A stretch of 64,000 bases of DNA from a virus (IMGVR_UViG_3300028048_000106:28188-92187), one strand, 5' to 3'; positions 23,572 to 59,821 are shown, counted from the first letter of the stretch. Numbers and translations: made by a program. The notes: generated by a model from the sequence alone, not told the origin.

Positions 23572-24531
23572 TCATCTTTCCATCCATTTTGCAATGGCTG
23601 TCAGCAAGCCAAAGAAGCCACTCTCTTTGTCAATGACAGTGTTCAACTGGAACAGCAGGTCTGTCATCTTTAGTATTCCATCTAAGTCAACAACAATGCC
23701 AGTGTCAACAACATGCTTGTACAATGCACTTCCAAACTCAACATAGTCACTTATCTTGTCTTTCTCAGACAGATAGAACTTCCTGACTTCAAGCATGCTT
23801 CTAGTTGTCTTGAGCTTGTCAACAATGGCATCTAGCAGCTCATTCTTCTCAGACTCAGCAACTTTGTTGAGATTGACAACAAGCTCTCCTGTTGTGCAGC
23901 AGAACTGCAGGTAGTTGATGATTCTTCTGACATCTGGATAGTACTGGAAAGCTTCTTCAATGAAAGCTTTCACTGAGTCTCTTGTGTACTTGATGCCTTC
24001 ACTGTCAAGGATCTTCTTGACATGGATGAGAAGGTCTTTCTTGTCAAACTTGAGAGGGATGACTGGGCAACGAGACAGAAGAGGGGCAATTATCTTCTGC
24101 AAAAAGTTCCCAGTTATCAAGAACCGCGTGTCATCTTGTGCAGCCTCAATCAATGTCCTAAGCGCTTGCTGGAAGTTGTTGCCTCCTCCTGCACTCGCTG
24201 AGTCTACTTCATCAAGTATGACAACTTTTATCTTGCCTTCCATTGACAATGCATTGCAGAAGTCTTGGATCTTTGTCCTAAGGACATCAACGGTGCCATC
24301 TGTTGCACAAGGCACAAACAGCACTTGTGCATCAAGCTCATTGCACAGTATCTTTGCAAGTGTTGTCTTTCCTGACCCTGCTACTCCAATGAGGCTTAAG
24401 TTCTGAAGTGACTTCTTGTCAATCATTGACTTGAAGTACTTCTTTATGTCTTCACCCAAGACATACTCACTAAGGCACTTAGGGCGGTACTTGTCTACCC
24501 AAAGCTCTGTCAATGTGCTATTGTCTTCCAT
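23572..24531 (-). CDS. Clamp loader AAA+ subunit (T4 gp44/RFC-like)
   Basis: LWVDKYRP, GVAGSGKTT, ILDEVD, SRC, PDVRR. Confidence 0.92.
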   Translation of the reverse strand: MEDNSTLTELWVDKYRPKCLSEYVLGEDIKKYFKSMIDKKSLQNLSLIGVAGSGKTTLAKILCNELDAQVLFVPCATDGTVDVLRTKIQDFCNALSMEGKIKVVILDEVDSASAGGGNNFQQALRTLIEAAQDDTRFLITGNFLQKIIAPLLSRCPVIPLKFDKKDLLIHVKKILDSEGIKYTRDSVKAFIEEAFQYYPDVRRIINYLQFCCTTGELVVNLNKVAESEKNELLDAIVDKLKTTRSMLEVRKFYLSEKDKISDYVEFGSALYKHVVDTGIVVDLDGILKMTDLLFQLNTVIDKESGFFGLLTAIAKWMER

Positions 24532-24553
24532 GTATACAACCTACTTGTCTAGA

Positions 24554-25507
24554 TCAAAGTGTCATGAAGTCTGACCAGTCATTTGCTGCTCTTTTGTTGA
24601 GAGGGTTGTCTCTATACAAAGACTCATTTACAGTCTTCAATATCTTGTCTGAGAGTTCCTGTGGTATGCAGTTGAAGTCAATCATCTTTCTGTTCAGCAC
24701 ATATCTTGCTGCAAGCGAGTGGTCTTCTTTCAATGTCTTCTTCAATGCTTCTTTGTCTTTTGTCCACTTCAATGCTGTCTTAGGGCCACATCGTGTGAAC
24801 ACTTGCTGTATGTTGTCTGAACGGTCACCCATTAGGATCTTCCCAACCAAGTAGTCTTGTGCTGAGACGATCTCTCCACCTAAGTCACGCTTAGCCTCTT
24901 TGCCAAACAAGTCAAACTCTCTAATGCCATCAATCTGCAGAAAGTCATGGTCAGATGCAACTAGCATCACTCCAACATATTTGTCTCTAAGGTGCAATAT
25001 TGTTGTGGCGATCACGTCATCACCTTCTGCTCCATCAACTTTAACTAAGTGGTAGCCACGCTCACCTTCAACGTCAAGCTCTTTGAATATGACATCTGCA
25101 ATGTAGTCTTTTATTGGCTGCAGCTGGAACTGCCGCTTCACAAGCGCTCTATGTGCTTTGTACTCAGGGTAGAGTGCTTTGCGGAAAGAGTGGCTTAGCT
25201 TGTCATCCATAGCAAACACAATGTCAATTGCACTGCATTCATCTATCTCGCTTTGGAAGTTTGCTTTTGCAACCTCTTCAACACTCTCAAGCTTCCACAT
25301 CACCTGCTTCTTCAAGCAAGTCTTGTAGTTGTCACAGTTCAAGAGGTTTGGCAGATTCTTTTGGTCACACTCTTCAGCAGGCTTGATCCAAACTGCGGCA
25401 TCTTCTGGATACTTCTCTGTGAATGTCTTTACTGAAGCAAACAGGTTCACATATTCAAAATACGATCCATCAACTACTATCAAGAACTTCTTCTCATTGT
25501 CTTCCAT
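24554..25507 (-). CDS. 5'-3' exonuclease / T4 RNase H-like flap endonuclease
   Basis: VDGS, FRKALYPEYKAHR, EGDDVIA, SDHDFLQ, MGDRSDNI, CGPKTA. Confidence 0.88.
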   Translation of the reverse strand: MEDNEKKFLIVVDGSYFEYVNLFASVKTFTEKYPEDAAVWIKPAEECDQKNLPNLLNCDNYKTCLKKQVMWKLESVEEVAKANFQSEIDECSAIDIVFAMDDKLSHSFRKALYPEYKAHRALVKRQFQLQPIKDYIADVIFKELDVEGERGYHLVKVDGAEGDDVIATTILHLRDKYVGVMLVASDHDFLQIDGIREFDLFGKEAKRDLGGEIVSAQDYLVGKILMGDRSDNIQQVFTRCGPKTALKWTKDKEALKKTLKEDHSLAARYVLNRKMIDFNCIPQELSDKILKTVNESLYRDNPLNKRAANDWSDFMTL

Positions 25508-25533
25508 GACTATATGGTACTCCTATAGACTTG

Positions 25534-26142
25534 TCAGTCTTCTTCAACAAGCTTTGTTGTTGGGAACATCTTTCCTGCATGCAAGTCAGCAAGAAGCTGT
25601 TTCTGCTCATCTGTCAAGTTCTGCTCAAGCTTCTTTGACTCTTCATCAGCTTTTTTCCAATACTCAATGCTCTTAGGGTCTAAGTTGGGGTCATAGTATG
25701 TCCCATCGGGCTTGCTGACTCTATTCAGCAGTGACTCTATTGTCTCAGTAGGAGCCCACTCAACGTCAAGATGCTGCCTTTCTGTACTGCTGTTTGGGTC
25801 ATTCCAATACCCTTGGTCTTTCCACTTCTTGTTGGGGTCATATATGATCCTGTGCTTCTTCAAGTCAACTATGCTTCCATCATTGAGCTTGAACAGCGGA
25901 GAGTCACCAAGAAATCCAAAAGCTGGCATAGGGCCATTGAAGTAAGGGATGTCTTGATTTGGGACAGTGAGCTTTGCACTTGCTGTTGGATCATATGGCC
26001 TAGCTTCAGGGACAGTCAAGTGTCTAGCACTAGACTGCTTGTCTACAGCAAAAGCCTTCTAATATGGCTGCCCATATGCAAAATTCCTAAAGCGACTTTG
26101 GTTTAAAGGGTTTGCAAGAGGATGCGGATTTGTGGCTGTCAT
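25534..26142 (-). CDS. Hypothetical protein (one TAG)
   Basis: Extends to ATG 26142, 6 nt after TACAAT. Confidence 0.6.
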
Positions 26143-27353
26143 AGTGATATTGTATCATAAAACATAAACTATTTATGTTTCAGCTTTTGTGAAGAGGGAC
26201 AATAGGCTCCTCTTCGTAGAATGTTTATAGCTGCGTTAGTGTCTGCATCTATATCCAATCCACAAGAGCAGTGGTAGTGCTCACCTTCTCGGTTTGCCTT
26301 TATCACCGCACCACATTTTGAGCAAGTCTGGCTTGTGTAAGCTGGATCAATCTTAGTCAACGTGAAACCTTCACTTTCACTAAGTGACTCCAGCTTGTCA
26401 ATGACTTGCCTATAAGACCAATATTGAAGCTTGTTGTTGACTGACTTGTAGAATGAAGACTTGTGCTTCACGTTCTTCAAGTCTTCACAAACTATGTCAT
26501 AGTCTTGATGCTCTTCAACAAACTTCTTTGTCAGACGATTTACTTCATTTTCTTTGAATTTCAAGAGCTTTTGGTATTTCTTTGACCCTCTCTTCTTGTT
26601 TGTCAATCTCTTATAGATGTCAATTAGCTCTTTTCCATAGAACTTCCCATTTGAGTCAGCAATCAACTTGTGGTAGCCAAGGTCAATTCCAATCTTCTTT
26701 TGGTTGTCTTTCTTCTTTGCATCTTCCTTTTCATATATGAAGTTCAAGAAGTACTTTCCATTGATTCTTTGCAATTGAACTGACTTCTTCCTCTTCCAGT
26801 CTTTGAACTTCAAACTATGTTTATGGTGCTTGATTGGCAAGCAGATTGTCTTTGCTCTTTTCTTTCCTTCTTTGAAGATTGGCAAGAAAATCCTGACAAA
26901 CATGTCAAACTCTCCATCATCACATTCTTCAATGTCAAAGAGATTCTCGTTCAACATTATTGAGATGTTCTTCAAGTCAAACTTCAGTCTCTTCAGATAA
27001 TTGATGTTGAGTTCGTGGAAATGTTTGTCAGTGAAATTCTTGAACTTGTTGTTCTTCAAGCACCATCCAAAAACCTTCTTGTATTTTCCAAAGACTCTTT
27101 GTCTAAGATTTGCTAATTGACTTCTGACAATTTCACTCGCATTCTTGTATACAAGCTACTTAAAACGCGAATGCTTAATTGCACACTCTGGACAGTCTTT
27201 AGTTGATAGATACTGCTTGATTGGCAACTGTCCTCTTTTGATTAGCTCAAGATAAGTCTTCAAAGATGACTCGTACAAAGCAAACATCTAGTCAAGATCA
27301 TTTGTCTTAACTTGGTTACAAAACTTCAAACTATGCTTGCTTGTTCTTGTCAT
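26139..27353 (-). mobile_element. tnpB: TnpB RNA-guided endonuclease gene #1, TAG-recoded, no TnpA
   Basis: GIDLG, VCEDL, TSQTCSKCG, CSCG, DADTNAAINI; N-terminus MTRTSKHSLKF reached through 2 TAG. Confidence 0.85.
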
Positions 27354-27517
27354 ATATCTATTTACTCTTTAAGAATATGTTTCTGATATTCTTATTTACT
27401 CAAATCAACTGCAATTCTTTGCATGATTTATGCTGTTTATGCAATTCAATTAGTTTATCGCTTTAAATACATTCTACACATGTGAGGTAAATAAAGACAA
27501 AGTAGAGGTCAACAACA

Positions 27518-29926: not shown

Positions 29927-30181
29927 TCATAGACTAATGCTTCCAAGCTATAAGTTTCTATATACTGTTCTGCAGCTTGGATATGCATAGCTATGCTGTG
30001 GCTGCCAATGATTGAATGGCACCCCATAGTCATATACACTTTTGAGATGGCTATACTCATCCCTAGTGATGATGCACTCAATGCCAATAAGGTCACATTT
30101 CATTCTAAACTCATCATATGTTGATGTGCTTCTCAATGCATCTACCATTGCATCTATGTCATAGTCTACGCCATCTTCCAT
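29927..30181 (-). CDS. Hypothetical protein
   Basis: ATG 6 nt after TACAAT; TAG 29948 read through to TGA. Confidence 0.5.
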
Positions 30182-30220
30182 AGAGATATTGTACTGCCAA
30201 AAAAGTAAATATTGACTACC

Positions 30221-30967
30221 ATGGACATACCATTCTATTCAGACATATATGCATTTCCGGGCCCTTGGCGCCACACATGCCATCCACATAGACCACACTT
30301 CAAGAGAAGTCAAGTTGTTGAGACATCTAAAGAAGTTGCAATAAGTGATGCCACTGGCAGTCTACGCTACACTGTCTAGCTAGTGTCATCTCCACTTGAA
30401 GATGGCCTTGGATTCTAGGTGAGAGTTGTCCACCACTACCCCAATGGCACAGATGAAGATGTTGAGCTAGTGAAGACTGTCCCTGAAGATGGGACATACA
30501 CCAGAGATTACAAGAAGATTGAAGATGCTTTCAATACATGTGTGCAGAGGTACAACTCTCTAGTCAAAGCTGAGACGCAAGACTTCAACACAATTGACAT
30601 ATACAAAGACAAGATTGGATACAAGAAGACACATCCAGACTGCTGCATGTTCTGTGAGTGGAGCAGAATGCCAACACCACTTGACATGTGGCACAAGTGC
30701 CCAGGCTATCCACATCTTGAATGCCACAACCCAGACAATGAGTTCAAGTTCACATACATGGTAGATGATTTCCCTGGCTTTCCAAACAAGAACCACCATA
30801 GATATTGCCCAGACAGTTGGCACAAGCTGCCATGGATGGAAGAAGACCCATTCAAGAGAAAGCCTCTTAGAGGAGATGAAGTCTTGAACAGGATCTTTCC
30901 ACATGTTGACATGTTTGGAGTGTGCAATGGCTTCAAGAGAAGAGACAGTAAAATGCCTCCACATTGA
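30221..30967 (+). CDS. Cys/His/Pro-rich hypothetical late protein, TAG-recoded
   Basis: ATG 9 nt after GTAAATA; two TAG before the track ORF. Confidence 0.6.
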
Positions 30968-32639: not shown

Positions 32640-34604
32640 TCAAACGGTCTCAGCATCAACCGTTCCAGAGTCATTGCCCGTTGTTCCAGCACTGCCACTT
32701 GATGTTGATGCTCCACCCATGTTCTTGAACATCTCAGCAAACTTAGGGTCATTCTTCATCTTCTCTAAGTCTTCAGCAGAGAAGTTTGGCATCTGTCCAT
32801 TTGCTCCAGCGGGGTAGATCTTCTTGACAACCGGCTCCCATGCCTTTGTCAAAGCATCAACAGCATCTTTCACCTTCTGGATGTCATCAGTCTTCATCTC
32901 TTCACGGACTTTGGCAATTGCATCATTGATGGCTTTCTTCTCATCATCTGTTGCTTTGTCACCATTGTCTTTCAGAGTCTTCTCAATAGAGAAGCACAGA
33001 CTGTCAGCTGCATTCTTCTCCATCACAACTTCAGCACGCTTCTTGTCTTCTTCTTCATGCGCCTCAGCATCGGCCTTCATGCGCTCAATCTCCTCTTTTG
33101 AGAGGCCAGACCCATTTGTGATGGTGATGTGCTGCTCTTTGTTTGTCCCAAGGTCCTTTGCAGACACTGATATGATGTTGTTTGCATCAATGTCTACTGT
33201 CACTTCAATCTGTGGGACTCCACGTGGAGCAGGAGGGATTCCATCTAAGTTGAAAGACCCGAGCAGCTTGTTGTCAGCAAACATCTTGCGGTTGCCTGTT
33301 GCTAGACGTATTGTCACGGCTGGCTGGTTGTCTACTGCTGTTGAGAACACCTGTGACTTCTTTGTTGGGATTGTTGTGTTCTTCTCAATGAGTGTTGTGA
33401 ATATCTGGCCCATTGTCTCAATGCCAATGTCAAGAGGCGTCACGTCAAGAAGAAGGACATCTCCACCAACATTCTCGCCAGCAATGATAGATGCCTGTAT
33501 TGCTGCTCCTTCTGCAACAACAGTGTCAAGATTTGCATTCTTGCTTGGCTCTTTATTGAACAGTGCCTTGACTTTCTCTTGCACCAAAGGCATACGGCAA
33601 GAGCCACCAACAAGGACAACATCATCAATCTCACACTTTGCGTCATCAAGCAAAGCTTTTACTGGAGCGTCAAGACGGTCTACAAGAGGAGCAGCTAGCT
33701 GCTCAAACTTTGCACGTGTGAGCTCATACACCAGGTGCTTAGGGCCAGATGCATCAGCTGTGATGAATGGCAGATTGATAGAGTATGAAGGTGTAGTAGA
33801 CAGTGCGCACTTAGCCTTCTCAGACTCTTCAACAATCCTCTGCATTGCCATTGGGTCATTGCTCAAGTCAATGCCATTGTCTTTCTTGAACTCTGCAACA
33901 AGCCAGTCAGCGATGGCATTGTCGAAGTCCCAGCCACCAAGATGGTTGTCGCCATTTATTCCAATGACTTCAAACACACCATCTGCAATGTCAAGTATAG
34001 AGAGGTCAGATGTGCCACATCCAATGTCAGCAATTGCAATCTTTCCAGTCTTCTTCTTTGAAAGGCCATATGACAGACAAGCAGCTGTTGGCTCTGACAG
34101 CACTCTGACACACTCCATGCCAGCAATTGTTGCTGCATTCTTTGTTGCTTCTTTTGCTGCTGCATTGAAGTATGCTGGAACAGTCACAACACACTTCTTT
34201 ATCTCATATCCAAGATATGCTTCTGCATCTTTCTTCAACTTTCCAAGTATCTTAGCTGAGATCTCTTCTGGAGAGTACAGCTTGCCATCAATCTTCACTC
34301 TGCACTGGTTGTTTGGCCCTGCCACAACCTCATATGGCACGTTTGCAATCTCATCTTTGGCTTCATCTACTGTCTTTCCCATGAAGCGCTTTATTGCAAA
34401 CACAGTGCGCTTAGGGTTTGTCACGCGCTGCCGCGCTGCTTGTGTTCCAACAAGAATCTCACCAGATGATGTAAATGCGACAACAGATGGTGTTGTCATG
34501 CTGCCAGTGTCCTTTGCTGGAATTATGATTGGCTTGCCTCCTTCAGAGATGGCAACAACCGAATTGCCTGTTCCCAGGTCAAAACCTACAATTTTGTCAC
34601 TCAT
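32640..34604 (-). CDS. dnaK: Chaperone DnaK (Hsp70)
   Basis: GFDLGT, TPSVVAF, TVPAYF, EPTAA, LLLDVTPL, GIPPAPRGVPQIEV. Confidence 0.97.
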   Translation of the reverse strand: MSDKIVGFDLGTGNSVVAISEGGKPIIIPAKDTGSMTTPSVVAFTSSGEILVGTQAARQRVTNPKRTVFAIKRFMGKTVDEAKDEIANVPYEVVAGPNNQCRVKIDGKLYSPEEISAKILGKLKKDAEAYLGYEIKKCVVTVPAYFNAAAKEATKNAATIAGMECVRVLSEPTAACLSYGLSKKKTGKIAIADIGCGTSDLSILDIADGVFEVIGINGDNHLGGWDFDNAIADWLVAEFKKDNGIDLSNDPMAMQRIVEESEKAKCALSTTPSYSINLPFITADASGPKHLVYELTRAKFEQLAAPLVDRLDAPVKALLDDAKCEIDDVVLVGGSCRMPLVQEKVKALFNKEPSKNANLDTVVAEGAAIQASIIAGENVGGDVLLLDVTPLDIGIETMGQIFTTLIEKNTTIPTKKSQVFSTAVDNQPAVTIRLATGNRKMFADNKLLGSFNLDGIPPAPRGVPQIEVTVDIDANNIISVSAKDLGTNKEQHITITNGSGLSKEEIERMKADAEAHEEEDKKRAEVVMEKNAADSLCFSIEKTLKDNGDKATDDEKKAINDAIAKVREEMKTDDIQKVKDAVDALTKAWEPVVKKIYPAGANGQMPNFSAEDLEKMKNDPKFAEMFKNMGGASTSSGSAGTTGNDSGTVDAETV

Positions 34605-34688: not shown

Positions 34689-35138
34689 TCAATGGCTGAC
34701 TATTTGATGGTACTTCTCATAGTCAAATGGTGCATCTTCATCAATGATGCCTTTCTGCTTGAGCTCCATCCAAAGCTCGCACTCTGGAGTCAAAGAGTAT
34801 GTTGCATCTGGCAGCACAAGGTACTTTGTGTATGCCATGCTGTCTCTCAGGCTGCTGTCATCCATTGACTCAGATATGACTGGATAGTACTCTCCATCAT
34901 CTACATTGTATATGACTAAGTCAACTATGCGTGGAAAGTCTTCATCATCAAGCTCATCACTTGGCAACAAAGGGTCAGGGCAGCCGTGCTCTTCAGCAAC
35001 TTTATTGTAGATGGCATCTATGACTTCATCATATGTAAGGCTAGCCTCATCTTTGTCTAGCTCAACTTTGACATTGACTTCCTCACCACCGTATGGAAGC
35101 TCTACTACTGCTGCAAATGTTGTCTTGTTTGTCTTCAT
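34689..35138 (-). CDS. Acidic hypothetical protein
   Basis: ATG 6 nt after TACAAT. Confidence 0.6.
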   Translation of the reverse strand: MKTNKTTFAAVVELPYGGEEVNVKVELDKDEASLTYDEVIDAIYNKVAEEHGCPDPLLPSDELDDEDFPRIVDLVIYNVDDGEYYPVISESMDDSSLRDSMAYTKYLVLPDATYSLTPECELWMELKQKGIIDEDAPFDYEKYHQIVSH

Positions 35139-35303
35139 GTATACATTGTACTTTGTCTAGTTGGAAACTAAATCACAGTCAGTGCATCTAGACGCATTGT
35201 CAGTCTTTGGCTTCATCATCTACTGTCTGGCCAACTATCTTTGCACTGACTATCTTCCACTCTCTACTGCTGTCAAGCTTCTTCATTGACAAAAATCTCG
35301 CAC

Positions 35304-36714
35304 CAAGATCACATCCTTTTAGGGAGTGATTCACGTGCGAGAAGAGTAAATAAGATATGAAACAACATTAAGTCAATAGATTTCCAAGTCAAGAGAGTAA
35401 ATAAGATTGCAATGAGCAGAGGACTCCATACAGAAGAAGAGAAGGCAAAGATAAGAGCTAGCAAGCAAGCTACAGCTCTTAGGCACTCTTCTATGGATGC
35501 TAAAGTCTATGAGCTCAAGATTGTTGAGAGAAGACTTAACAAACAGCAGAAAGAACAACTTGAATTACTATTCTTAGAAGGAAAATGGTTCTACAACCAC
35601 ATTCTTTCAGAGAAGAAGAAAAGAGAAATCCCACTTCATTGCATTAATCCAACTCACTATAAAGACATCTTAAAACTAGACAAAGACAAAAATAAAGTCT
35701 CATACAAACTCCAAATTCTTCCTTCTCACTTCAAGCAGACAATCCACATGAGGATGATTTCGAATGAGAAGACAATTCGTTCATTGGTGAAGAAAGGCTT
35801 GCAAAGATATGGTAGCCTAAAGTTCAAGTCTGAGCTTTCTTGCATTCCACTGAAAGGGATGGACTGGAAGTTCAAGAGTATGCGAAAAGTTTGGATAATG
35901 GGAATCAAAGGACAGATCTTAGTTAGAGGAGTTGAGCAGATTCCAGCAAATTCAGAATTTGCAAATGCAAACTTGCTCAAGAGAGCAGATGGGTATTTCC
36001 TGAAAGTCACAACATACCAAGAGAGGAAAGAAAAACAAAATAATGGAAAGGAAATCGGTCTTGATCTTGGGATCAAGACGTCAATAACTACTTCTGAAGG
36101 TGAGAAGATAGACATATCTATTGAAGAAAGTGATCGACTAAAGAGACTTCAAAGAGAGATGTTTCGAAGAGTCAAAGGATCAAACAACAGATGGAAGACT
36201 ATCAAGAAACTACGGAAAGCCTATCAGAAGCAGACAAACAAAAAGCAAGACAAAGCAAATAAGATTGTGCATAGACTAAAGGCATATGACCGAATCTACA
36301 TGCAAGATGAGAACATAGCTGGATGGCACAGAGGAATGTTTGGAAAGCAGGTGCAGCACAGCTGCCTTGGAATGGTCAAGTCAAAGTTGATGGCATTGCC
36401 TCAGACAGTTGTCCTTGACATGTTCATTCCAACAACCAAGCTATGCCCTAAGTGCCATTCAGTGAAGAATGACATGACACTTGCAGACAGAGTGTATGAA
36501 TGCTCATGTGGATATCATGAAGATCGAGATGTGCATGCAGCAAAGAACATGATAAACATTGCAAAGTCTTGCTTTGAGAATCATTTAGTACCGGCGGAAC
36601 ACCGGGAAATCACGCTCACGGAGTTCAAGGCCGCTGTTGCTGATGAGATACTCAGCAGCAAGCCTGGACAAAGAAGTGAGAAGATCATACCTTTTAAGGT
36701 GTGATAGAGTTCAC
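35304..36714 (+). mobile_element. tnpB: IS200/IS605-family TnpB-only element #2 (CDS 35412-36704)
   Basis: GLDLG, QDE, PTTKLCPKC, CSCG, DRDVHAAKN; subterminal hairpins ATCACATCCTTTTAGGGAGTGAT (left) and ATCATACCTTTTAAGGTGTGAT..TTCAC (right). Confidence 0.88.
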
Positions 36715-38187: not shown

Positions 38188-38478
38188 TCACTTTCTGATG
38201 GCATTGCTCTCAAGCCAGATGTCAGCATACTCTCGTATCTTCTTGACATCTCTGCTACGAGGCTCACCTGGCTTCTCTTGCCTAAGGACATACTTCAGCA
38301 CATTGAACATGTAGGCATCTTTGTTGAGCCCTACTTTGTTTGCAATGGCGACGACGTCAATGCCTCTTCCTTCTGACACTAGCTGCTGCAGCTCTTCAAC
38401 TGTGAACAGTTGGTAGTGCTTTGGCTTGTGCACATAGTTGTAATCTTCAAAACCTTTTGGTGCTGTCAATGTATTCAT
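38188..38478 (-). CDS. DUF3310-like small phage protein
   Basis: VHKPKHY...NVLKYVLR..K...DVKK..Y. Confidence 0.65.
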   Translation of the reverse strand: MNTLTAPKGFEDYNYVHKPKHYQLFTVEELQQLVSEGRGIDVVAIANKVGLNKDAYMFNVLKYVLRQEKPGEPRSRDVKKIREYADIWLESNAIRK

Positions 38479-38528
38479 GCGTATATGGTACAATGCTAGA
38501 CAGCCAGCAGCGCATTGAATAGAGGCAG

Positions 38529-40875: not shown

Positions 40876-41412
40876 TCAAATTCTCTTCAACACGCATGAA
40901 AGTGACCTTCCTTCTAGAGATGGCTTTCCATCAAGTCTAGCAATTCCATCAAAGTTCACTAGAATGCTCCGCATGACATCTTTTGCATATTCAAGCTTGT
41001 CCATCTCGCGCTTTGCCAAGAATATTGTCACTTTCACTGTGTCGCCATCTTCTAGAAACTGCTTTATGTGGGCAATCTTTATGTTTCGATCATTGTCATC
41101 AATGCGAATGGTGAACTTTATCTCTTTAAGTTCAGAGCGACTTGCCCGTAGCTTCTTCATCTGCTCTTTTTGGCGCTTCTTCTCATCATACTTGAACTTG
41201 GCATAGTCAATTATCTTGCATATAGATCCAGGAAACACAGATGGATTGAATGCTATCTGCACAAGGTTCTTACCTTCTGACTTTGCTCTTGCAATAGCAT
41301 CATCTTTTGAAAGTATTGTTGTTTGGCCATCTTGGCCAACTAGTCTGACTTTGCTAGACTTTATAGCATAGTCCATTGGTAGATTTGTCTTGTCATTCTT
41401 GTCTTTTGCCAT
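40876..41412 (-). CDS. infC: Translation initiation factor IF-3 (divergent)
   Basis: VRLVG, NLVQIA, CKIIDYAKFKY, KEIKF..RID, FLEDGDTVKV, EGR; AAGGA SD before ATG 41412. Confidence 0.88.
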   Translation of the reverse strand: MAKDKNDKTNLPMDYAIKSSKVRLVGQDGQTTILSKDDAIARAKSEGKNLVQIAFNPSVFPGSICKIIDYAKFKYDEKKRQKEQMKKLRASRSELKEIKFTIRIDDNDRNIKIAHIKQFLEDGDTVKVTIFLAKREMDKLEYAKDVMRSILVNFDGIARLDGKPSLEGRSLSCVLKRI

Positions 41413-41438: not shown

Positions 41439-42859
41439 GTGAACTAGTCACACCTTGAAAGGTGTGATCTTCAAGTGTTCTTCCTTGCATCTAGTGCAAT
41501 CACTTGATTTTCTTGCTTCAATGTCGGTAGTTTCACGAACACAATTTGTATCATGTTCGCCAGAGCTTCCAACTCCACAAGCGTTTATTCCCGACGTCCC
41601 ATCGGTATTCTTCATAATGTCTCTCAAAGCAAAGTTCCTTATGTTGATAGCTGCATTCAAGTCTCTATCTATTATTATACCACATTCTGGGCATTCATAG
41701 ACTCGGACATCTAATGGCATCTTCTGTCTATGTCCACAGCAATGGCATATTTGGCTTGATGCTTCAAACCTTCCAATCTTCTTGAAGATCTTGCCTTCTC
41801 TCATTGCTTTGTAGTTCAACATAGACGTAAACATGTGCCACCCTAAGTCTGAGACCTTCCTGCCCCAAAGCTTCTTCATCCCTTGCAGACTCAAGTCTTC
41901 AATGCAGAAACAGTCAAATTGGCTTTCTTTGACTAGTCTTGTTGAAGTCTTGTGCAAGAAGTCTTTTCTTTGGTCAGCAATCTTTTGATGAATTTTTGCA
42001 ACTTTCCTTCTTTGCTTCTCTTTGTTCTTGCTTCCTTTTGTCTTCTTGCTTAGTTTTCTTTGTTCTTGTGCTAGCTTGTCTAGCATCTTTTTGAAATATT
42101 GTGGATTGTCAATCTATCTTCCATCTGACAATGTCAAGAAGTGCTTTAAGCCAAAATCAATTCCTAGAGCATTCTTCTTGTTGATGTTGATGTCATCGAC
42201 TAATGGTCTAAAGTCATCCTTTGCATGCACAATGAACGACACATAGTATTGTCCAGAAGAGTTTCTCGAGATTGTTGCTGTTCCAATCTTGCCTTTCTTG
42301 ACTTGTCTTGAGATCTTGACTTTGATTCCATTCTTTCTTGAGAACTTTGGCATCTTGATCTTTGACTCTTTGAAGTCAATCTGGAAATGTTGAGGGATCT
42401 CAAATGAGTCTTTGTCAAACTTCTTTGATTTGAATCTCGGGAAATTTGCTCTACCAGCAAAGAAGTTGTTGAATGCTCGGTCAAGATGGCCAACCGCACA
42501 TATGAGACTCTGTGAGTTGACTTCATAAAGCCAAGGATTTGCTTCTTTGAGTTTTACAGTCTCACCAGAACAACCCAAGCCAATTGAGTTTAAGTACTTC
42601 TATTGAGATGCATATCTTTCTTGATTGAGATGAAGAGCCCAATTGTACATGAAACGAACACAGCCAAAATGCTTAGAAAGAAGAACTTTCTACTCACTAG
42701 TTGGATATATTCGAAATCTATATGTCTCAATCATTTGGTAATAGAGATATTGTACGTTTTACAGTTTTATTTACTCAAGACAAATCATAAACTTCACATG
42801 TATTTCATAGAAAATTCTAGGCAATTCGTATCACACCCTAAAGGATTTGATGTTTCTTG
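41439..42859 (-). mobile_element. tnpB: IS200/IS605-family TnpB-only element #3 (CDS 41448-42734, TAG-recoded)
   Basis: YRFRIYPTSE[Q], FGCVRFMYN, GIDFG, IEDL, SSQICHCCG, CPECG, DRDLNAAINI; hairpin ends. Confidence 0.9.
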
Positions 42860-42938
42860 CTTAGGTACCCTTTAAAATATACATGTTGGCTTGAAAGTAG
42901 CAACGTTTTCAACTAATTTCGATGTAAATAATGACAGC

Positions 42939-43709
42939 ATGAGTGGTAGATCTAATGACATAAAGAAAGAGATCAAGATATCTTAGCTGCCAAGCATAAA
43001 GAACATAAGCAGCGATGATCTTTTGATAATATCAGACTATGATGGTGGCAAGTGCTTGTCTAAGAACATGACAATGCAGTAGCTATAGAACTATGTCAGT
43101 TCTAAAACATTGTCTAGCAATGCATTTAAGACTAAGGTAGAGAGCATTGCAAAGGTACAGCATCTTTTTGACACACGAGAGAATTGGGAGAAAGAGCCAT
43201 TGCGCAGTCTAGTTCTAGAGAAAGGCTAGATTGCATTTGTCAATGACACAGGCCTAGAAGAAGTCATGATGAAAGCTGGCAATGGCATAGACCCATTCTA
43301 CCAGCTTCCATATGTCAGATTTCCAGTTAATGATCCAGCAGAGATAATGGTGAACACAAGAGCTGGTTGGGCAGAATAGCCTGGATTTTAGCCAGCTAAA
43401 GGCTAGATTGTCATTTGGTCTGACAAAGCTTAGATGCACAAGTATGTGCTTGAAGGCGATGAGCTAGTAGACGATGGTTTAATAGATGTCCCTGGCATAA
43501 AGATTGGAGATGGCAATGCATACAATCTTGACTTGCCATATGTTGGAGATGACATTGAGTAGAAGATTGACTAGCACATAAAAGACGTGCAAGCGCATGT
43601 CTCAGAGCAAGATAGGAAGTCTTGGAACCACAAAATCACAATAGGTAATCTTGATACGCCATCTGATGACGGTGTAGAAGGTGAAACACTAATCATAAAA
43701 AGAAACTAA
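42939..43709 (+). CDS. Tail-fibre-associated protein with two Mtd-N-like repeats, TAG-recoded
   Basis: W...VLEKG[Q]I...KAGNG..F..LPY and W..[Q]P...KG[Q]I...KIGDG...LPY; invisible in ORF track. Confidence 0.65.
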
Positions 43710-46894: not shown

Positions 46895-46896
46895 AA

Positions 46897-47094: not shown

Positions 47095-49472
47095 AGAACT
47101 ATCCATCCCTGTCAGCGCTGTTTAGAGATGTCGGTCTGAGCATCGTGAAGAAGCACAAGGCAACAGGCTTGAGCTCGATTTGCCCGCTTGAGTTTGCAGA
47201 GAAGATAGACACGATCGACTAGGCGGAAGATGCAGACAAGGTCGCACTTGGAGAAATCAAAGACCTTTGGTTTTCTATTATAGGTGGTGTCTTGACGATC
47301 TGCTGGAGAGATCCGCTTGATGTAGTGCACGAAGGCTCTGTCATAACTCACTTTGGAGCTACAACGCTCAGAGCCAAGCTAGATGGCTATCCAGTTGGTC
47401 CTGAAGATGGCATATAGATTTACTCTGGAATGACAAGAGACAAGCATGCATCTACTCCACTTGTGGTTGACTTGGACTCACTAGGCTTGATCCAAGATGA
47501 TGGAGAAGGCGGAACTAAGACAATCTACTTCAAGTTCTTCTCTAAGACTTCTGGCAGTGCTTTGCATGATGGAATATGGAACACAGACACTTTGATTGGA
47601 GATGCAAATCAGTTCTCAAGTGAGTCATATGACTGGAGCGCAATCTACTCAGCTTTGAAAGACTACCCTACTGCAAAAGCATTGAGTGTCCTTCCTGAAG
47701 CTGGTTCAAAGGTGTTTGTCAACTACATGATAAGAGACTACTACCTCTCTTCTAGCATAAATGTGGCAGCTGAGACCCGTCAAGATGTTGTCAACAATGC
47801 TGACAAGCTTAGTGCTGTCTCCATTCCATGGACAATTCTCGGCTACAACGCAAATGTCCCACAATATGTTGGATACAAACGGCTTGATGACCTCACTTAG
47901 ACATACAAGTACATGTATGTGCAGTCAATTGATGACTCAGTGTCTTCATGCACGCTATTCAAGACTGATGGAACTTAGGAGACCATTGAGCTTGATGTTG
48001 GAAATAAGCAGTTCAGGAACATTGTTGCTGGATGCTAGACATACACTGAAGATGAGTGGGACTACTAGATCAACAAGAAGTCATATACAAAGAACAACTA
48101 TGTTGTTGATGCCGTGTCAGAGTCTACGTTTGGCTACAACAACGAAGGAACTGGAACATAGAATGTCTATCATGTTCCAGTCAAGATCAGCGCTGATGGG
48201 TATGAATGGGACTTCTGCGGTTACACGATGACAATCTAGCCACAGAATGCTTTGATTTCGATAAACAGGACTAGCAACACTGCAACTGCAACGTACACTA
48301 ACATTTAGTTTGATGCAACAGAGATCAGATACGCTGACATTTTTGAATAGTTCCCAGATGACACTTCTGGAGGCGAGACGTACGTGAGGCTAGAAGCAGA
48401 TGGACTCCATGAGATAGACTGGTCATTGTCAGCTTCGTTGAAAGTCAATGAGCTGCCATATGACGTATACAAAATAGAAGATGGCAGACTTGAGCTTCAG
48501 ACGTCGTATTTCTAGAAGTACTGCGGCTATGCGCTGAAGAGTATCAACGCAGAGACAGGCGCGAATGTATATGAGAACCTAGTCGAGATAGAAGACTTCG
48601 AGATTGGCAAGGCGTACTACACGACGTGCAACGCCAAAGACTACGACAAGACTAACAGAAACCTGAGCGTAGTAGCTGACGTCGTCAGATATGATGGCCA
48701 GTTATACGTCTGCAAAGCCAATGTGGCTATTGGCCAATCCAAAACGTTCGAGCAACTTTCGGCATCGAACTTCAGGGCTTTGTCATCGGCAGCCGAGCTG
48801 TCTGTCAAGGCTTTGTACGACGCCGGCATGTACTTCGTCTCCAGTTAGAAGATGCCATTGACGATGTTTGGCAAGGAGGTTGTTGAGCAGAACATGTTGA
48901 ACTGCTACTTTTACGGGCGCAATGTCTATGAGCAGTCATTCTACAAGCAGTATGCCAACAACATAAATGGATCAAGACGTTTCTCTGATTCACCTTACAA
49001 GCCACAGCACAAGCACGATGTTGTGTCTACTGCAGGTTTGGCAAATGCAAATAGTCTGATGTTGAAGCTGTACAAAGAGCAATAGATGATTAGGCATATA
49101 GTTCCTGCTGTGAACAGGACAGTTGTGTCTCCTATTAATGGACCATTTCGGCCAGACACATACACTAAAAACAATAGATAGACATGGGAGACTTCGATTG
49201 ACTTGTTCTGGCCATTAGCGAACTATGAGGTGTTCGGCTCTGGAGCAGATGCCAGCAGCACGTTCTCGAAGGTTTATCCAGACAATGCATCAAGAATAAA
49301 GACAAATCTTGCTGCAGATGGATCTTCATCTGCTAGTTCCGTGAAATGGTGGCTGCGTGATCCTACTACTGGCAACTCTTCCAATGAGTACCTTGTCTAC
49401 ACTTCTGGAGCATCCAACACCTACCTTGCCAACTACTCTTATGGCTTTGTCCCAGCTTGCATAATCGGATAA
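47091..49472 (+). CDS. DGR target: putative receptor-binding protein with C-terminal C-type-lectin-fold (DUF6273-like) domain, TAG-recoded
   Basis: 793 codons open with only TAG; FWPLANYEVFG...WWLR...GFVPAC; carries the VR. Confidence 0.85.
49331..49460 (+). repeat. DGR variable repeat (VR)
   Basis: 130 nt ungapped match to 50397-50526; 14 of 15 mismatches are at TR adenines. Confidence 0.95.
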
Positions 49473-53270: not shown

Positions 53271-54173
53271 TTACATGCTCTCACAGGCTAGCAGCTCAAT
53301 GCCTGATATCCCATCTATTCCATCTGCATCATCTTCACAGTAGATGTAGAAGTCACCATAGCCATCGCCAGAGTTTGCAATCCTGACATAGAACAGTGCA
53401 TCTCCATGCGCAATTCTAGCTTCAAGTGCATCTAAGTCTTCCCATCTAGCAAGATCTACCACATAGCCTCTAGAAATGAGGTCTCTTGTGTTGTCAATGG
53501 TGTCTTTTGTTATTTGGTAGGTGTCAATTGACTCAAAGCACACATTAGCACTTGCTCTTCTGTCTGCTGCCACATGTGCCTTAGCAATCTCTACAATCGC
53601 CTTCACACGCCTGTCAATCTCTTCTGCTGTCTCTTGCCTACTGCCAGCTCCATTGAAGTGGTATCTGTTGAATGTTGACTCCATTGTGCTGTTTGGCACA
53701 ACAATCCCTTGTGCATAAGTCTTCTCATAGTGGACAGCTGTGTCAGTAGCCTCGTCATACTCGTCAAGACTGTAGGCGTCTTTCTCCCAGTCATATACAG
53801 AGCCATGTCTAGATTGTCCATCTTTGATGCTCTTCAGCACATTCTTGTAGTGCTCCCACTCTTTTTCAGCAGCTTTGCTTGCATTTGGGTCTTTTCTGCC
53901 CGATATCCATATCTTCTTGAAGTAGTCTAGACTGTACTTCACAGCTTTTGTCTTGACAAGAAGCTTTCCTATGAATGCAAGCTGGAAAGTCCTTACACAG
54001 AAGTCTAGTATGCACTTGTTGCGGCCAGCTAGTGCCTTGTCATGGTATGGAGACCTCTTGTTTGTACATGACTTGGCTAAGTCTTTCAGCACATCATCTA
54101 GATACTGCTTCTGGCAGGCAACTACAAAACTGCTGCTTGAGCTGTTGCTCACAAAGTCTACTCTTGCTTTCAT
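53271..54173 (-). CDS. SNSSSSSF-motif protein 2
   Basis: MKARVDFVSNSSSSSF; ATG 6 nt after TACAAT. Confidence 0.75.
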   Translation of the reverse strand: MKARVDFVSNSSSSSFVVACQKQYLDDVLKDLAKSCTNKRSPYHDKALAGRNKCILDFCVRTFQLAFIGKLLVKTKAVKYSLDYFKKIWISGRKDPNASKAAEKEWEHYKNVLKSIKDGQSRHGSVYDWEKDAYSLDEYDEATDTAVHYEKTYAQGIVVPNSTMESTFNRYHFNGAGSRQETAEEIDRRVKAIVEIAKAHVAADRRASANVCFESIDTYQITKDTIDNTRDLISRGYVVDLARWEDLDALEARIAHGDALFYVRIANSGDGYGDFYIYCEDDADGIDGISGIELLACESM

Positions 54174-54209
54174 AGTAACATTGTACTCTATTTTCGACAG
54201 CCTCACCAA

Positions 54210-54623: not shown

Positions 54624-55438
54624 CCTTCATGGAATATGCAGTGGACAACACCTTCATCTAAGAAGTCTTTCCATGTGTAGATGTCACCATTCAGCCAAGA
54701 CACTCTGTTTGGCATGCGCTTCTTGCTGTCTTCATCAAGTGGGTATTTCTCTAGCAGTTTGGGGTCTATAGGGTCAATCTTCTTCAATTCTACTAGTCTT
54801 GCAAACAGTATCTCAATGAATCTAGCACATGAGTAGGCCGGCGACTCAAATCTCACGTCTTTGCCTTGCTTGCTGTCTTGACTGTCTTTCTGGCCATCTT
54901 CATCTATTCCATCTATGGACATTATGTCGTTTTCACCGAAATGTATGAATAGATGTGTGCCATTGTCTAGAAGCACTTCATCAGCTTTCTTTATCTCTAG
55001 TTTTCTACGAGCTTCTCTAATAGTCTCTTTAATGTATTCTGGTGCATCAGAATGAGCTAGGCTGTCTTCGTCACCATTTGAAAGATACCAACTATGGTCT
55101 ATAGCCTCTAAGCTTCTAAGAAGACTCTTGAATACTTGCGCCTGCTCTTTAACTGGATCCCAAGCATCATCCATGTTTGGAAACTCTTGATTCCAGAACT
55201 CTAGCATTTGGCCAAATGCACGGACTGCTTTCGCTCTGTCTTTAGGCATCTCATACACAACAAATGGCCTAGACAGCTCATCTTTGCTGTCAAGATCTAC
55301 TTTGCCATCTATCCATAGACTAGCAAGCGCTTCTTCAATGTCTGCCTTGCCAATCTTGAAGTGTGTGAATATCTCAGTCTTAGATATTATGAAGCTTGAG
55401 CTTGAGCTGTTTGACACAAAGTCTTGACGTGCTTTCAT
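54620..55438 (-). CDS. SNSSSSSF-motif protein 3
   Basis: MKARQDFVSNSSSSSF. Confidence 0.75.
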   Translation of the reverse strand: MKARQDFVSNSSSSSFIISKTEIFTHFKIGKADIEEALASLWIDGKVDLDSKDELSRPFVVYEMPKDRAKAVRAFGQMLEFWNQEFPNMDDAWDPVKEQAQVFKSLLRSLEAIDHSWYLSNGDEDSLAHSDAPEYIKETIREARRKLEIKKADEVLLDNGTHLFIHFGENDIMSIDGIDEDGQKDSQDSKQGKDVRFESPAYSCARFIEILFARLVELKKIDPIDPKLLEKYPLDEDSKKRMPNRVSWLNGDIYTWKDFLDEGVVHCIFHEG

Positions 55439-55463
55439 GTCTTTATCTTACAATGCCTAGAGA

Positions 55464-55742: not shown

Positions 55743-55743
55743 G

Positions 55744-56217: not shown

Positions 56218-56229
56218 CTTGCCGCCTCC

Positions 56230-56766: not shown

Positions 56767-56786
56767 AGTTCAATATCCTCTACATC

Positions 56787-57227: not shown

Positions 57228-57631
57228 TCTTCTGGAAACTCCAATGCGCCATAGTATGTAGTGTGGGCTTCTGGGTCTTCATATATCTTGAACTTCACAG
57301 GAGCTCCATCTACTGTGTCTGCCATCTTGTCAAATCTCTTCATGTACTGTGTGTCATGGTCTTCACCAGCATCGCACTTCACCCAATTGCCAACTTCAAG
57401 CTGAGTGATCTGCCTATTGTCTATGCCTTCTTTGCTCCAAGGGTCACTGGTGTACCAAGAGTCCCATCTACAGACTGCATCAAAGTCTTGGTACAGTGAC
57501 AAGCTCACTTCTCTTGAGTCAAACTTCTTGACAAGCTCCTTGAATGCTTCAACTGCTTCTTGAGTGTCTAGCTCAATGAAGAAGCTGCAGCTTGAGCTGT
57601 TTGAAACATAGTCAGTCCTGATCTTCATCAT
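57224..57631 (-). CDS. SNSSSSSF-motif protein 5
   Basis: MKIRTDYVSNSSSCSF. Confidence 0.75.
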   Translation of the reverse strand: MMKIRTDYVSNSSSCSFFIELDTQEAVEAFKELVKKFDSREVSLSLYQDFDAVCRWDSWYTSDPWSKEGIDNRQITQLEVGNWVKCDAGEDHDTQYMKRFDKMADTVDGAPVKFKIYEDPEAHTTYYGALEFPEE

Positions 57632-58583
57632 CTATCTCCTCTTCACCATCTTCTTGTGCAGCATGGCACGTGGCATCTGCCTTAGCTTTCTCTTCAGCAT
57701 ACTGCTTCTTTGTCATGACTTCTTTGCCTGCTTGCCAGACAGATCCATTCATGACATACTGCTGTCCAGTCTTGTCTGCACACTCTTGACAGAGATATGC
57801 AATCCATCCACGTGTTGTGCAGCGTGGAGAGTATGTGCTCTTGCTTGATATGTAATGTCCACAATGCTCACAGACATTGTAGCAGTCTTTCTCAGCTTTT
57901 GCCACTATGTCTCGCGCTTTGTCTTCAAGAATCTTTGAAATGCAATTCTGAGCATGTGATGGTTCGAAGTCAAACAGCCTAGATGGCCAATTCTCAATGA
58001 AATACCTTCTATCGAGAAGCCAGTCCATCAACTTGTGCTTTGTTGCCACAGAATGTGTCCTCTTATAGTGGTGGTATGTTGCTCTTCTTATGAACTTGCC
58101 ATCTTTCTCAAAGACTTCTACATTGCAGCAGTTCTTGTTTGCCTCTTTCTCTTTCTCAAACTCTTCTCGTGATGCAAGCTCTTTCTCAACAACCTCATCA
58201 TAAGCATCTTTGTCAAGGACTTCAACTCTCTTGAAGTCTAGCTTTGAGATCTTGTCAAAGATGCTATGGAAAAGCCTGTTCCATGCACACATCCACTTTG
58301 GAGGGTCTGCAACTATAGAGTAGTAGAAGTGCAGAGTTCCATACTTCTCTTTGACTTGGTCTGCTTGGACTCTGACTCTGAACTTAGGGTACATCAAGTA
58401 GTTCAATGCTTCTAGACGCTGTGAAGCATCGTCAATTGCATTGAGCCAACCATTGTTCACTTCAAGTCCCCAGCACATGCAAGTCTCTGTACATGGCCGA
58501 CTTCTCATGCAGTACAAAATCTTGTTGCTATGCAAGATGCTGTACTTCAAATTCTCTGCGTTTTCACTGCTCATCTTCATCAA
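57612..58583 (-). CDS. Conserved phage protein with Zn ribbon
   Basis: GW...QVKEKYGTLHFY...CEHCG...GW...CQEC. Confidence 0.7.
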   Translation of the reverse strand: MMKMSSENAENLKYSILHSNKILYCMRSRPCTETCMCWGLEVNNGWLNAIDDASQRLEALNYLMYPKFRVRVQADQVKEKYGTLHFYYSIVADPPKWMCAWNRLFHSIFDKISKLDFKRVEVLDKDAYDEVVEKELASREEFEKEKEANKNCCNVEVFEKDGKFIRRATYHHYKRTHSVATKHKLMDWLLDRRYFIENWPSRLFDFEPSHAQNCISKILEDKARDIVAKAEKDCYNVCEHCGHYISSKSTYSPRCTTRGWIAYLCQECADKTGQQYVMNGSVWQAGKEVMTKKQYAEEKAKADATCHAAQEDGEEEIDDEDQD

Positions 58584-59401
58584 GAATCTACTCCTCTTGG
58601 CGCATAGTCTTTAATGTCACATATGCAGTTTGACACAGTATCGCTGAGTCTTTCTGCACAGCTAGAACTGCCAAACAAGTCATGTACTTCTACAAACTTC
58701 GCGTCTTCATCGTCTTGCCAATTTGAGAAGCCTTTCCAATAGCTTTCATTTCTATAGTAGACATTGAATGTCATGTTCTTGTCTTTCAATACAAACGTCT
58801 CGCAGATGAGCTCATCATCAAACTCACCTTTAAGGTACTTCTCTACAGCTTCAGCTACTTTAGATTGGTCAAACACCTTGCAGATCTCTTTGCTCTTGTT
58901 GGCATTAGGTGCCTCTGCTCTGACAATGTACATTCCATCACCATTGTCTGCCCAATGGACCATGTCAGCGCTTATAGAGCTTTTCAATGGGACATACAGC
59001 CTAAATGCTCTGTCAGATGCTATTTCATGGAAGTCAATTGACATTGGCCCATCTATAGATGTCTCTGGCTCGCTCCAACGACTACTATAGCCTAGCTCTA
59101 GTTTTATAGAGACAACTTCAAGGCCATTCTTCAGACTAGGGTCAAGGTCTTTGAAGAACATGTTGTCAATCTTCTCAATGAACTCACAGACAACACTAGA
59201 GTTGAACTTGTGCTCACGATATGCTTTTGCAACCTTGATCAAGTAGTTGTCATCTAGACCATTGTCTACAGTCTCTTTCAAGTCAGCATTTGCAACATGC
59301 AGAAGCATATCAAGCTCAATCATAGCACGAGCAATCTCATTCTTCTTCTTGAAGTACTCTGCACGAGTCTTGTAGAACTTCTCTATCTTCTCAATGTCCA
59401 T
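58580..59401 (-). CDS. Hypothetical protein
   Basis: 273-aa intact ORF. Confidence 0.6.
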   Translation of the reverse strand: MDIEKIEKFYKTRAEYFKKKNEIARAMIELDMLLHVANADLKETVDNGLDDNYLIKVAKAYREHKFNSSVVCEFIEKIDNMFFKDLDPSLKNGLEVVSIKLELGYSSRWSEPETSIDGPMSIDFHEIASDRAFRLYVPLKSSISADMVHWADNGDGMYIVRAEAPNANKSKEICKVFDQSKVAEAVEKYLKGEFDDELICETFVLKDKNMTFNVYYRNESYWKGFSNWQDDEDAKFVEVHDLFGSSSCAERLSDTVSNCICDIKDYAPRGVDS

Positions 59402-59404
59402 AAG

Positions 59405-59809
59405 TCAATCTAGCGCTTTCTTCAAAGCATCTATAGAGTCTACTTCAATGATTGATGAGCTAGATGCATGAGACTCTACTATGACAGCTAGCCCTAAGTT
59501 CTCAATGTATAGAGCAACATCAGTCAATCCACAATAGCTATTGCCACCAATAAGCTTCTTTGCTGCAGCCTTGGCATCATGTGATGCACTCCAGTCAAGA
59601 CTAAGCTCATTGAACTCGCTGCTAAGAGACTTTCCAGTAGTAGCAGCTTTCACAAGACGTATCTCAAAGTCATGTGGAAACTTTAAACGTGCTGCATCAC
59701 CATCATATGGTGCAGTCTTCCATTCAATGACAGGCTTCTTCTTCAATAGACTGTATGTCTTCTTTGAAGCTAGAAGCATGACATCTAGTTTGTGCTGTGG
59801 AGATTTCAT
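59405..59809 (-). CDS. Hypothetical protein
   Basis: Intact ORF; ATG 6 nt after TACTAT. Confidence 0.55.
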   Translation of the reverse strand: MKSPQHKLDVMLLASKKTYSLLKKKPVIEWKTAPYDGDAARLKFPHDFEIRLVKAATTGKSLSSEFNELSLDWSASHDAKAAAKKLIGGNSYCGLTDVALYIENLGLAVIVESHASSSSIIEVDSIDALKKALD

Positions 59810-59821
59810 ATATAGATAGTA

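Follow-up and report, generated by a model that had tools for sequence, protein, structure and literature searches.

Promoter-like boxes set directly before start codons, and a clade-specific IF3, in a huge TAG-recoded phage

The 64,000-nucleotide (nt) stretch of DNA analysed here, hereafter the window, comprises bases 28188-92187 of a single linear virus contig of 92,187 bp (IMGVR_UViG_3300028048_000106). It comes from a huge T4-related phage in which TAG is a sense codon, and the contig represents about one-third of the genome (~34% complete by CheckV estimate). Many genes of this phage start at an ATG that lies only a few nucleotides downstream of one of two boxes, a sigma70-type -10 hexamer (TAnnnT, class A) or the heptamer GTAAATA (class B). 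Our preferred explanation, to which we give a probability of about 0.68, is that these are two promoter classes, many copies of each being fused directly to the start codon. Genes of this kind would be expressed from leaderless or nearly leaderless mRNAs. The window also encodes a translation initiation factor 3 (IF3) of unusual sequence, and a specific role of this protein in tolerating leaderless mRNAs is possible.

Two classes of box at the start codons

Reading TAG as a stop interrupts many long frames of the contig, and reading it as sense restores them; the portal and large terminase genes carry 13 TAG codons each, and the gene of one 775-amino-acid (aa) protein carries 14. We called genes over the whole contig with TAG as a sense codon, using codon-usage log-odds and weighted interval scheduling; starts were picked on coding score alone and the caller was blind to promoter motifs. 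The 109 genes called cover 94% of the contig. Those for replication, chaperones, and IF3 form TAG-free sets, and TAG codons occur in the sets made up of virion genes and the late sigma gene. Coordinates are window positions unless marked genome.

Of these 109 motif-blind starts, 12 have a TAnnnT hexamer ending 6 nt upstream, whereas the other 29 spacings have 2.45 on average (binomial P = 6.9e-6). For TAnnAT the count at 6 nt is nine, compared with 0.90 at the other spacings (P = 3.5e-7). When the 40-nt upstream regions were shuffled 1000 times by single nucleotides, no shuffle brought TAnnAT to nine at any of the 30 spacings. This is the histogram against a shuffled control that a first-pass annotation of the window had proposed, and the enrichment that it anticipated was found. 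Its eight TAnnnT-N6-ATG sites (24531, 25507, 26142, 30181, 35138, 38478, 54173, and 59809), all on the minus strand, also read as it described them. The class A features of the window are the following:

24529..24544, minus strand: GTAGGTT-gtatac-ATG, start of the clamp-loader gene (23572-24531)
25505..25520, minus strand: GTACCAT-atagtc-ATG, start of the exonuclease gene (24554-25507); top matrix score, 12.7
26140..26155, minus strand: ATACAAT-atcact-ATG, start of a 202-aa gene; box within the 3' end of the upstream TnpB gene
30179..30223, both strands: divergent pair, GTACAAT-N6-ATG (minus, 30181) and GTAAATA-N9-ATG (plus, 30221) back to back
35136..35151, minus strand: GTACAAT-gtatac-ATG, start of a 149-aa gene (34689-35138)
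38476..38491, minus strand: GTACCAT-atacgc-ATG, start of a DUF3310-like gene (38188-38478)
54171..54186, minus strand: GTACAAT-gttact-ATG, probable start of a 300-aa gene; caller chose GTG at 54206
55436..55451, minus strand: GTAAGAT-aaagac-ATG, start of a 272-aa gene; extra site, absent from the first-pass list
59807..59822, minus strand: ATACTAT-ctatat-ATG, start of a 134-aa gene; box adjoins the upstream gene's stop codon
9777..9787, minus strand: box GTGTACAATAT with a long leader, 64 nt upstream of the gp55-like gene
13271..13281, plus strand: box AAGTACAATAT, leadered, 30 nt upstream of the ATG at 13310, with gaggat between

Alignment of 14 class A sites gives the extended consensus rGTAcaATrT, in which T-12, A-11, and T-7 are invariant (14/14) and positions -10 to -8 vary. 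A-8 is found in 11 sites, G-13 in ten, and T-5 in 12, and the start codon is ATG in all 14. To judge from these positions, class A is a sigma70-family -10 element. The contig contains a TAG-free sigma70-family gene outside the window (genome 1375-2142, plus strand; Sigma70_r2, E = 1.3e-16), so the predicted reader may be either the host sigma or this phage protein. With the hexamer at -12 to -7, as in a box placed 6 nt before the ATG, transcription would begin at the A of the AUG and the mRNA would be leaderless. The arrangement found here, a TANNNT box whose first T lies about 12 nt before the start, enriched and without a Shine-Dalgarno (SD) sequence, is the signature of leaderless genes described in Actinobacteria and Deinococcus-Thermus (Zheng et al. 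2011, PMC3160421).

A weight matrix built on positions -15 to -5 places its best matches 6-7 nt before starts (25507, 54173, 38478, 35138, 30181, 26142, and one outside the window), and a few matches fall inside genes. Other matches are intergenic and leadered, lying 14-64 nt before the gp55-like gene and the starts at 13310, 15016, 42734, and 62754; at 13310 and 62754 an SD-like run follows the box. Since the box occurs at variable distances from starts and its invariant positions are those of sigma70 promoters, it is more likely a DNA promoter than an RNA signal. Two near-identical stretches inside genes, at 49386 and 50452 (plus strand; GAGTACC/AATGT...cttctggagcatccaaca) also score as class A; they are repeated regions, not promoters. 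The genes served by class A include those of the clamp loader and of two nuclease-type proteins, together with several of unknown function, and nearly all of them are TAG-free. Class A would thus serve TAG-poor genes of replication or early type, such as those of the clamp loader and the exonuclease.

GTAAATA is present in 21 copies in a contig that is 94% coding, against 22 expected from composition, and 17 of the 21 lie 4-33 nt upstream of a start on the same strand, 15 at starts picked by the caller and two at alternative ATGs (8170 and 42939) of the first-pass annotation. The distances to the start are bimodal, either 4-9 nt (about 11 sites) or 21-33 nt (about eight), and purines precede each copy. 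The heptamer matches six of the last seven bases of the T4 late box TATAAATA. That box occupies -13 to -6, and a variant of phage Aeh1, CTAAATA, starts from -12 (PMC1524935). In sequence terms, class B is a variant of the T4 late promoter TATAAATA, and its likely reader is the gp55-like late sigma factor encoded in the window. The seven GTAAATA-N8/9-ATG sites listed in the first-pass annotation (4967, 8170, 14256, 29884, 30221, 35412, and 42939) were likewise confirmed. The window features of this class, in addition to the divergent pair above, and the sigma gene are as follows:

4951..4969, plus strand: GTAAATA-N9-ATG, 433-aa TAG-free gene
8155..8172, plus strand: GTAAATA-N8-ATG, small open reading frame (8170-8406), putative start
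14241..14258, plus strand: GTAAATA-N8-ATG, tail-tube gene with four TAG codons
29882..29899, minus strand: GTAAATA-N8-ATG, head-tail adaptor gene with five TAG codons
35397..35414, plus strand: GTAAATA-N8-ATG, TnpB gene (35412-36704); second GTAAATA at 35346
42924..42941, plus strand: GTAAATA-N8-ATG, 256-aa TAG-rich gene; caller chose TTG at 42891
9079..9714, minus strand: gp55-like late sigma gene with eight TAG codons (phrog_234, E = 1.3e-18)

Most class B genes contain TAG codons, among them those of the tail tube, the head-tail adaptor, and the large terminase (at a distance of 28 nt) and several of unknown function; the box is also found before a TAG-free gene of a 433-aa PARP-like protein (4967) and before a TnpB gene (35412). 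Read by the gp55-like factor, it would act mostly on TAG-containing late genes. Under T4 geometry, with the box at -12 to -6, the leader would equal the spacing minus 5. Spacings of 5-9 nt would then leave 0-4 nt: the seven sites of the first-pass annotation would have 3-4 nt, and three sites beyond the window 0-2 nt. One copy, spaced at 4 nt, falls outside what this geometry allows. The first-pass claim that these genes have little or no room for an SD sequence is thus borne out under T4 geometry, the predicted leaders being too short for one, but at N8/9 the mRNAs would be near-leaderless rather than strictly leaderless.

The two classes meet in the divergent pair, where only 39 nt separate the ATGs at 30181 (minus) and 30221 (plus) and one box of each class lies in the gap, which therefore has no room for two leaders. 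Boxes are also found upstream of TnpB genes: tandem GTAAATA pairs 34-51 nt apart precede two of them (27365/27399, minus strand; 35346/35397, plus strand), and a GTAAATA and a class A box both precede the TnpB gene starting at 42734.

Controls, relatives and the reach of the pattern

Several comparisons bear on whether the 6-nt spike belongs to true gene starts. Internal in-frame ATGs have a box at 6 nt in only three of 518 cases (Fisher P = 1.5e-5 against gene starts). When every ATG in the genome is counted the spike is absent, because coding periodicity swamps the signal; present at gene starts and not over all ATGs, the signal belongs to gene starts. In 100 kb taken from each of three other jumbo phages that encode an IF3, the same caller placed TAnnAT at 6 nt in 0/129 genes (Atu_ph07), 0/122 (Hallingskeid), and 2/138 (LR756504), with strong SD peaks in Atu_ph07 and Hallingskeid, so the caller does not create the spike. 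The same comparison bears on another check proposed in the first-pass annotation, the co-occurrence of infC and leaderless starts across jumbo phages: these three encode IF3 and have no spike. The caller picked other starts than the first-pass annotation at four of its sites (35138, 54173, 42939, and 8170); the lengths of orthologues in a related contig (L004, described below) support its ATGs at 35138 and 38478.

The fusion recurs in relatives. In G001 (locus L012), a 63.7-kb contig of 50% GC that also reads TAG as sense and whose clamp loader is 47% identical, TAnnAT lies 6 nt before the start in four of 30 called genes and in at most one at any other spacing, and a 40-nt divergent pair has TAnnAT-N6 on both sides. 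At a protein identity of ~47%, two orthologous genes keep their boxes against the start: the clamp-loader gene has TAGGTT-N6 here and TAGAAT-N6 in G001, and the tail-tube gene has GTAAATA-N8 here and GGTAAATA-N7-ATG in G001. L004 (ERZ28654830 scaffold_4, 277 kb), whose IF3 is 80% identical and whose gene order is the same, carries TATAAT-ttaaac-ATG (N6) before its 152-aa orthologue of the 35138 gene, and L006 adds two further cases. The GC content of L004 is 34% and that of the present contig 43%, a considerable shift in base composition for one clade. We also noted in G001 that the large terminase matches two called genes (56985 and 58033, both minus strand; 121 and 802 aa), the first of which has TAATAT-N6-ATG; the terminase gene there may be split or carry an insertion.

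As to how widely the arrangement applies, some 14-15 class A genes and about 11 short-spaced class B genes make up ~25 of the 109 genes (~25%). A strict SD-like core at 4-11 nt is found in ~30% of genes, and translation of the remainder probably depends on coupling or weak signals. The first-pass description of a systematic leaderless design is therefore apt for the promoters, since over half of the boxes that can be recognised adjoin a start codon, and not for the genes, only about one-quarter of which are of this type while ~30% are SD-led. Taken together, the mRNAs of classes A and B have weaker structure over their first 36 nt than the mRNAs of the remaining genes (one-sided P = 0.003).

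A number of points weigh against promoters fused to start codons as the explanation. The predicted transcript starts rest on E. coli and T4 geometry, and the leaderless state is inferred from them. Neither a -35 hexamer nor a TG extension (-15/-14) is conserved upstream of the aligned class A sites, and the difference in 5' structure falls short of significance when class A is taken by itself (P = 0.12). Several boxes of class A lie 12-26 nt behind an upstream gene or within its 3' end, so that translation of a read-through polycistronic mRNA would also be possible there. Three of the 15 starts listed in the first-pass annotation (54173, 42939, and 8170) were not picked by the motif-blind caller and have no independent support. 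Finally, whether a given gene has the fusion differs between relatives: the spacing at the DUF3310 gene is N6 here and N8 in L004, and in L006 that gene is SD-led.

The phage IF3

The IF3 gene of the window and the codons of its altered motif are located as follows:

40876..41412, minus strand: phage IF3 gene, 178 aa, ATG start after aaggaaagc (SD-led)
41008..41022, minus strand: codons F131-L132-A133-K134-R135, aligned to R129-F130-R131-G132-R133 of E. coli IF3

The assignment to IF3 made in the first-pass annotation is sound: the protein matches Pfam IF3_N with 62 bits (cut-off 26.9) and IF3_C with 79.5 bits (cut-off 34.8), and it aligns over its full length to IF3 of Thermus, of E. coli, and of a third PDB chain (5me0), with E values from 2e-24 to 9e-20. 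Alignments likewise verify the two substitutions pointed out there, LAKRE and MDYAI. The Lys/Arg-rich linker between the domains is kept, as are the fidelity residues of the N-terminal domain, phage R23 (invariant) and Y75 (nearly invariant), which correspond to R25 and Y75 of E. coli. In the C-terminal domain, R99, Y107, R112, R116, R129, and R131 of the E. coli protein are replaced by T, R, A, Q, F, and A, and R133, E134, and R168 are conserved. In place of the conserved motif 129-RFRGR-133 the phage has FLAKR, and all 22 aligned IF3s of the clade (61-98% identical to the phage protein) follow the pattern [FVIM][LM][AST][KR]R. Thermus IF3 has M-F-R-G-R at this motif.

More than 300 homologues were found at E = 1e-5 or better, on contigs of up to 455 kb; the best 120 of them are 62-98% identical and nearly all ~178 aa long or with a short N-terminal extension. 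Among 185,579 species genomes no close copy was found, bacterial IF3s being 31-46% identical (at most 39% over the full match), so the variant is old and phage-specific rather than a recent capture. On these sequence comparisons the protein is a conserved, clade-specific version of the factor. No IF3 was found in the relatives G001 and G002, both of which are small fragments in which its absence is uninformative. Genes for IF3 also occur in Atu_ph07, Phosso, Hallingskeid, LR756504, and other phages. No tRNA gene and no IF1 gene were found in the contig, nor any match to bS21 above the cut-off.

The gene belongs to a conserved block of IF3, two genes of unknown function, HAD_SAK_2, DUF3310, a PDDEXK nuclease, HSP70, and DnaJ. 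Here a TnpB gene separates IF3 from the nearest class A and class B boxes, and in L004 a class A box stands directly before IF3, followed by a 30-nt SD-containing leader, which marks IF3 as an early-type, SD-led gene. The neighbouring genes referred to are:

32640-34604, minus strand: HSP70 (DnaK-like) gene; Pfam name taken from the syntenic loci L004 and L005
31058-32242, minus strand: DnaJ-like gene; Pfam name from the same two loci
26139-27329 (minus), 35412-36704 (plus), 41448-42734 (minus): TnpB/IS605-type genes (phrog_506; Pfam OrfB_IS605 and Cas12f1-like TNB), two of the three with TAG codons; the last is the one next to IF3

The IF3 would thus be made from an SD-led mRNA, and it may supply or replace IF3 during infection. 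We see an even chance that it is simply a general translation-supply gene of huge phages, sustaining initiation and subunit recycling under host shut-off and unrelated to the promoter-ATG fusion. This agrees with its presence in several other jumbo phages, the three tested among them lacking the spike, with its conservation in more than 300 relatives on contigs of up to 455 kb, and with its place in a block with DnaK and DnaJ homologues and nucleases that looks like a host-independence set; it leaves unexplained, however, why the clade has a fixed non-canonical RFRGR region. A supply role and promoters fused to start codons could in any case both hold, and the two do not truly compete.

A more specific idea, put forward in the first-pass annotation, is that the phage IF3 variant re-tunes ribosomes toward leaderless phage mRNAs, to which near-leaderless ones may be added. 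Lacking the counterpart of R131, the protein would no longer reject complexes with a 5'-terminal AUG, or it would displace host IF3. The premise of the idea, that IF3 antagonises leaderless initiation in E. coli, agrees with the literature as far as excess IF3 is concerned (PMC9031893, PMC11775629), and low doses of IF3 help leaderless translation in the same organism (PMC9031893). R131 contacts the start codon, and replacing RFRGR of E. coli IF3 by the mitochondrial KKGK abolished the inhibition of leaderless translation at high IF3 and relaxed start-codon discrimination (PMC11775629). The motif exchanged in that swap is the one replaced by FLAKR in the window and by the clade pattern in 22 of 22 aligned sequences, mitochondrial IF3 itself works on leaderless mRNAs, and the altered motif and the spike go together only in this one of four IF3-encoding phage lineages tested. 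According to the account given in PMC3594737, phage phiYS40, most of whose middle and late mRNAs lack leaders, lowers IF3 and raises IF2, a shift that accompanies the leaderless mRNAs. The phage gene itself has an ATG start and an SD sequence. By comparison, E. coli infC is autoregulated through an AUU start, and no start of that type is found here.

Against tuning, the correlation comes from a single clade, three other IF3-encoding jumbo phages lack the spike, and leaderless-rich Thermus keeps the canonical FRGR, so that a change of the motif is not needed for leaderless translation. K134-R135 still provides two adjacent basic residues. R99, R112, and R116 have also changed; near R99 and R116, at a distance of one or two residues, the phage protein has a basic residue, and it retains the counterpart of K110. 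This has the look of a surface re-patterned as a whole, not of a targeted loss. Moreover, R99 and Y107 diverge in other phage IF3s too, and the leaderless type accounts for only about one-quarter of the genes. On balance we regard tuning as improbable, with something under one chance in five for a specific link between this IF3 and leaderless mRNAs, and a slightly lower chance for its fullest form, in which the clade IF3, lacking R131, would be a takeover factor that sustains initiation and no longer rejects terminal or near-terminal AUGs. Were it so, about one-quarter of the phage mRNAs, early and late, would be leaderless and yet well translated, and host infC could be depressed via its non-AUG start if start-codon proofreading were kept. 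The protein would then be the first phage-encoded initiation factor with a defined preference for an mRNA class, a parallel in the bacterial world to mitochondrial IF3.

Other readings of the boxes, known systems and significance

The boxes could instead act in RNA, as operators of a RegA-like repressor or as an SD-independent signal recruiting ribosomes. The motif does touch the start codons of early replication genes including that of the clamp loader, the class repressed by RegA in T4, and spacer positions -6 and -5 are conserved as well. But the same boxes lie 14-64 nt from other starts, some with an SD sequence between, the invariant positions of class A are those of the sigma70 -10 element, and GTAAATA matches the promoter of a sigma factor that the phage encodes. 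In relatives the hexamer drifts while its spacing is kept (TAGGTT to TAGAAT, TACAAT to TATAAT), which is easier to reconcile with a degenerate DNA box than with a sequence-specific RNA operator, and we consider an RNA signal very unlikely. Chance, AT-rich composition, or an artefact of start choice, for which one could cite the looseness of TAnnnT, the lack of a 6-nt spike over all ATGs of the genome, and the selection of some first-pass starts because of the motif, is scarcely credible for a spike that persists at motif-blind starts, is missing from shuffles, internal ATGs, and three control phages, and recurs in a relative of 50% GC (G001).

Promoters fused to start codons remain our preferred reading, and each of its elements has precedents. 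The cI gene of phage lambda, transcribed from PRM, is a known leaderless case. Like that gene and the leaderless genes of bacteria, the class A genes have a -10 hexamer at -12 to -7, no SD sequence, and an AUG start; they differ from the bacterial ones in that the carrier is a phage and the consensus is extended (rGTAcaATrT), possibly read by a phage sigma. Phage phiYS40, as described by Sevostyanova et al. 2007 (via PMC3594737), resembles the present phage in having many leaderless mRNAs for which a link to IF3 dosage was proposed; by that account, phiYS40 lowers host IF3 whereas the phage studied here adds an IF3 variant of its own, and the starts of phiYS40 were mapped by primer extension whereas those given here are inferred from sequence.

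The likeness to late transcription in the T4 family lies in a gp55-like gene and in a 7-bp box that stands before late structural genes and is avoided within coding sequence. T4 late mRNAs carry leaders with an SD sequence, whereas about half of the boxes here lie only 4-9 nt before the ATG, for a predicted leader of 0-4 nt, and both the late sigma gene and the late genes require read-through of TAG. As for the factor itself, mammalian mitochondrial IF3 (KKGK; PMC11775629) likewise has RFRGR replaced in a system rich in leaderless mRNAs, but the phage protein has FLAKR, lacks N- and C-terminal extensions, and is not a close relative. Other jumbo-phage IF3s (Atu_ph07, Phosso, Hallingskeid, and LR756504) share the two-domain form in a large phage; they are 25-38% identical, three of them keep R/K/V-G-R at 131-133, and the genomes tested have no 6-nt spike.

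Leaderless phage mRNAs, T4-type late promoters, and IF3 genes of jumbo phages are each already known, and our literature search found no paper joining the three for huge or recoded phages. New here are three things: the comparison by one and the same caller, in which the spike is missing from three other jumbo phages with an IF3; the finding that orthologous genes conserve the promoter-ATG fusion; and the replacement, in the IF3 of this clade, of the one motif that published experiments connect with leaderless translation. RFRGR is the only IF3 element whose exchange has been shown to relieve the leaderless block (PMC11775629), and its natural replacement in the clade makes the idea of a tuned IF3 testable. 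For annotation, start finders that expect an SD sequence will misplace starts of this kind. If the transcription starts are where the boxes predict, many mRNAs for replication and virion proteins would lack a ribosome-binding leader in a whole clade of huge TAG-recoded phages, which would be a departure from the T4 model of late expression.

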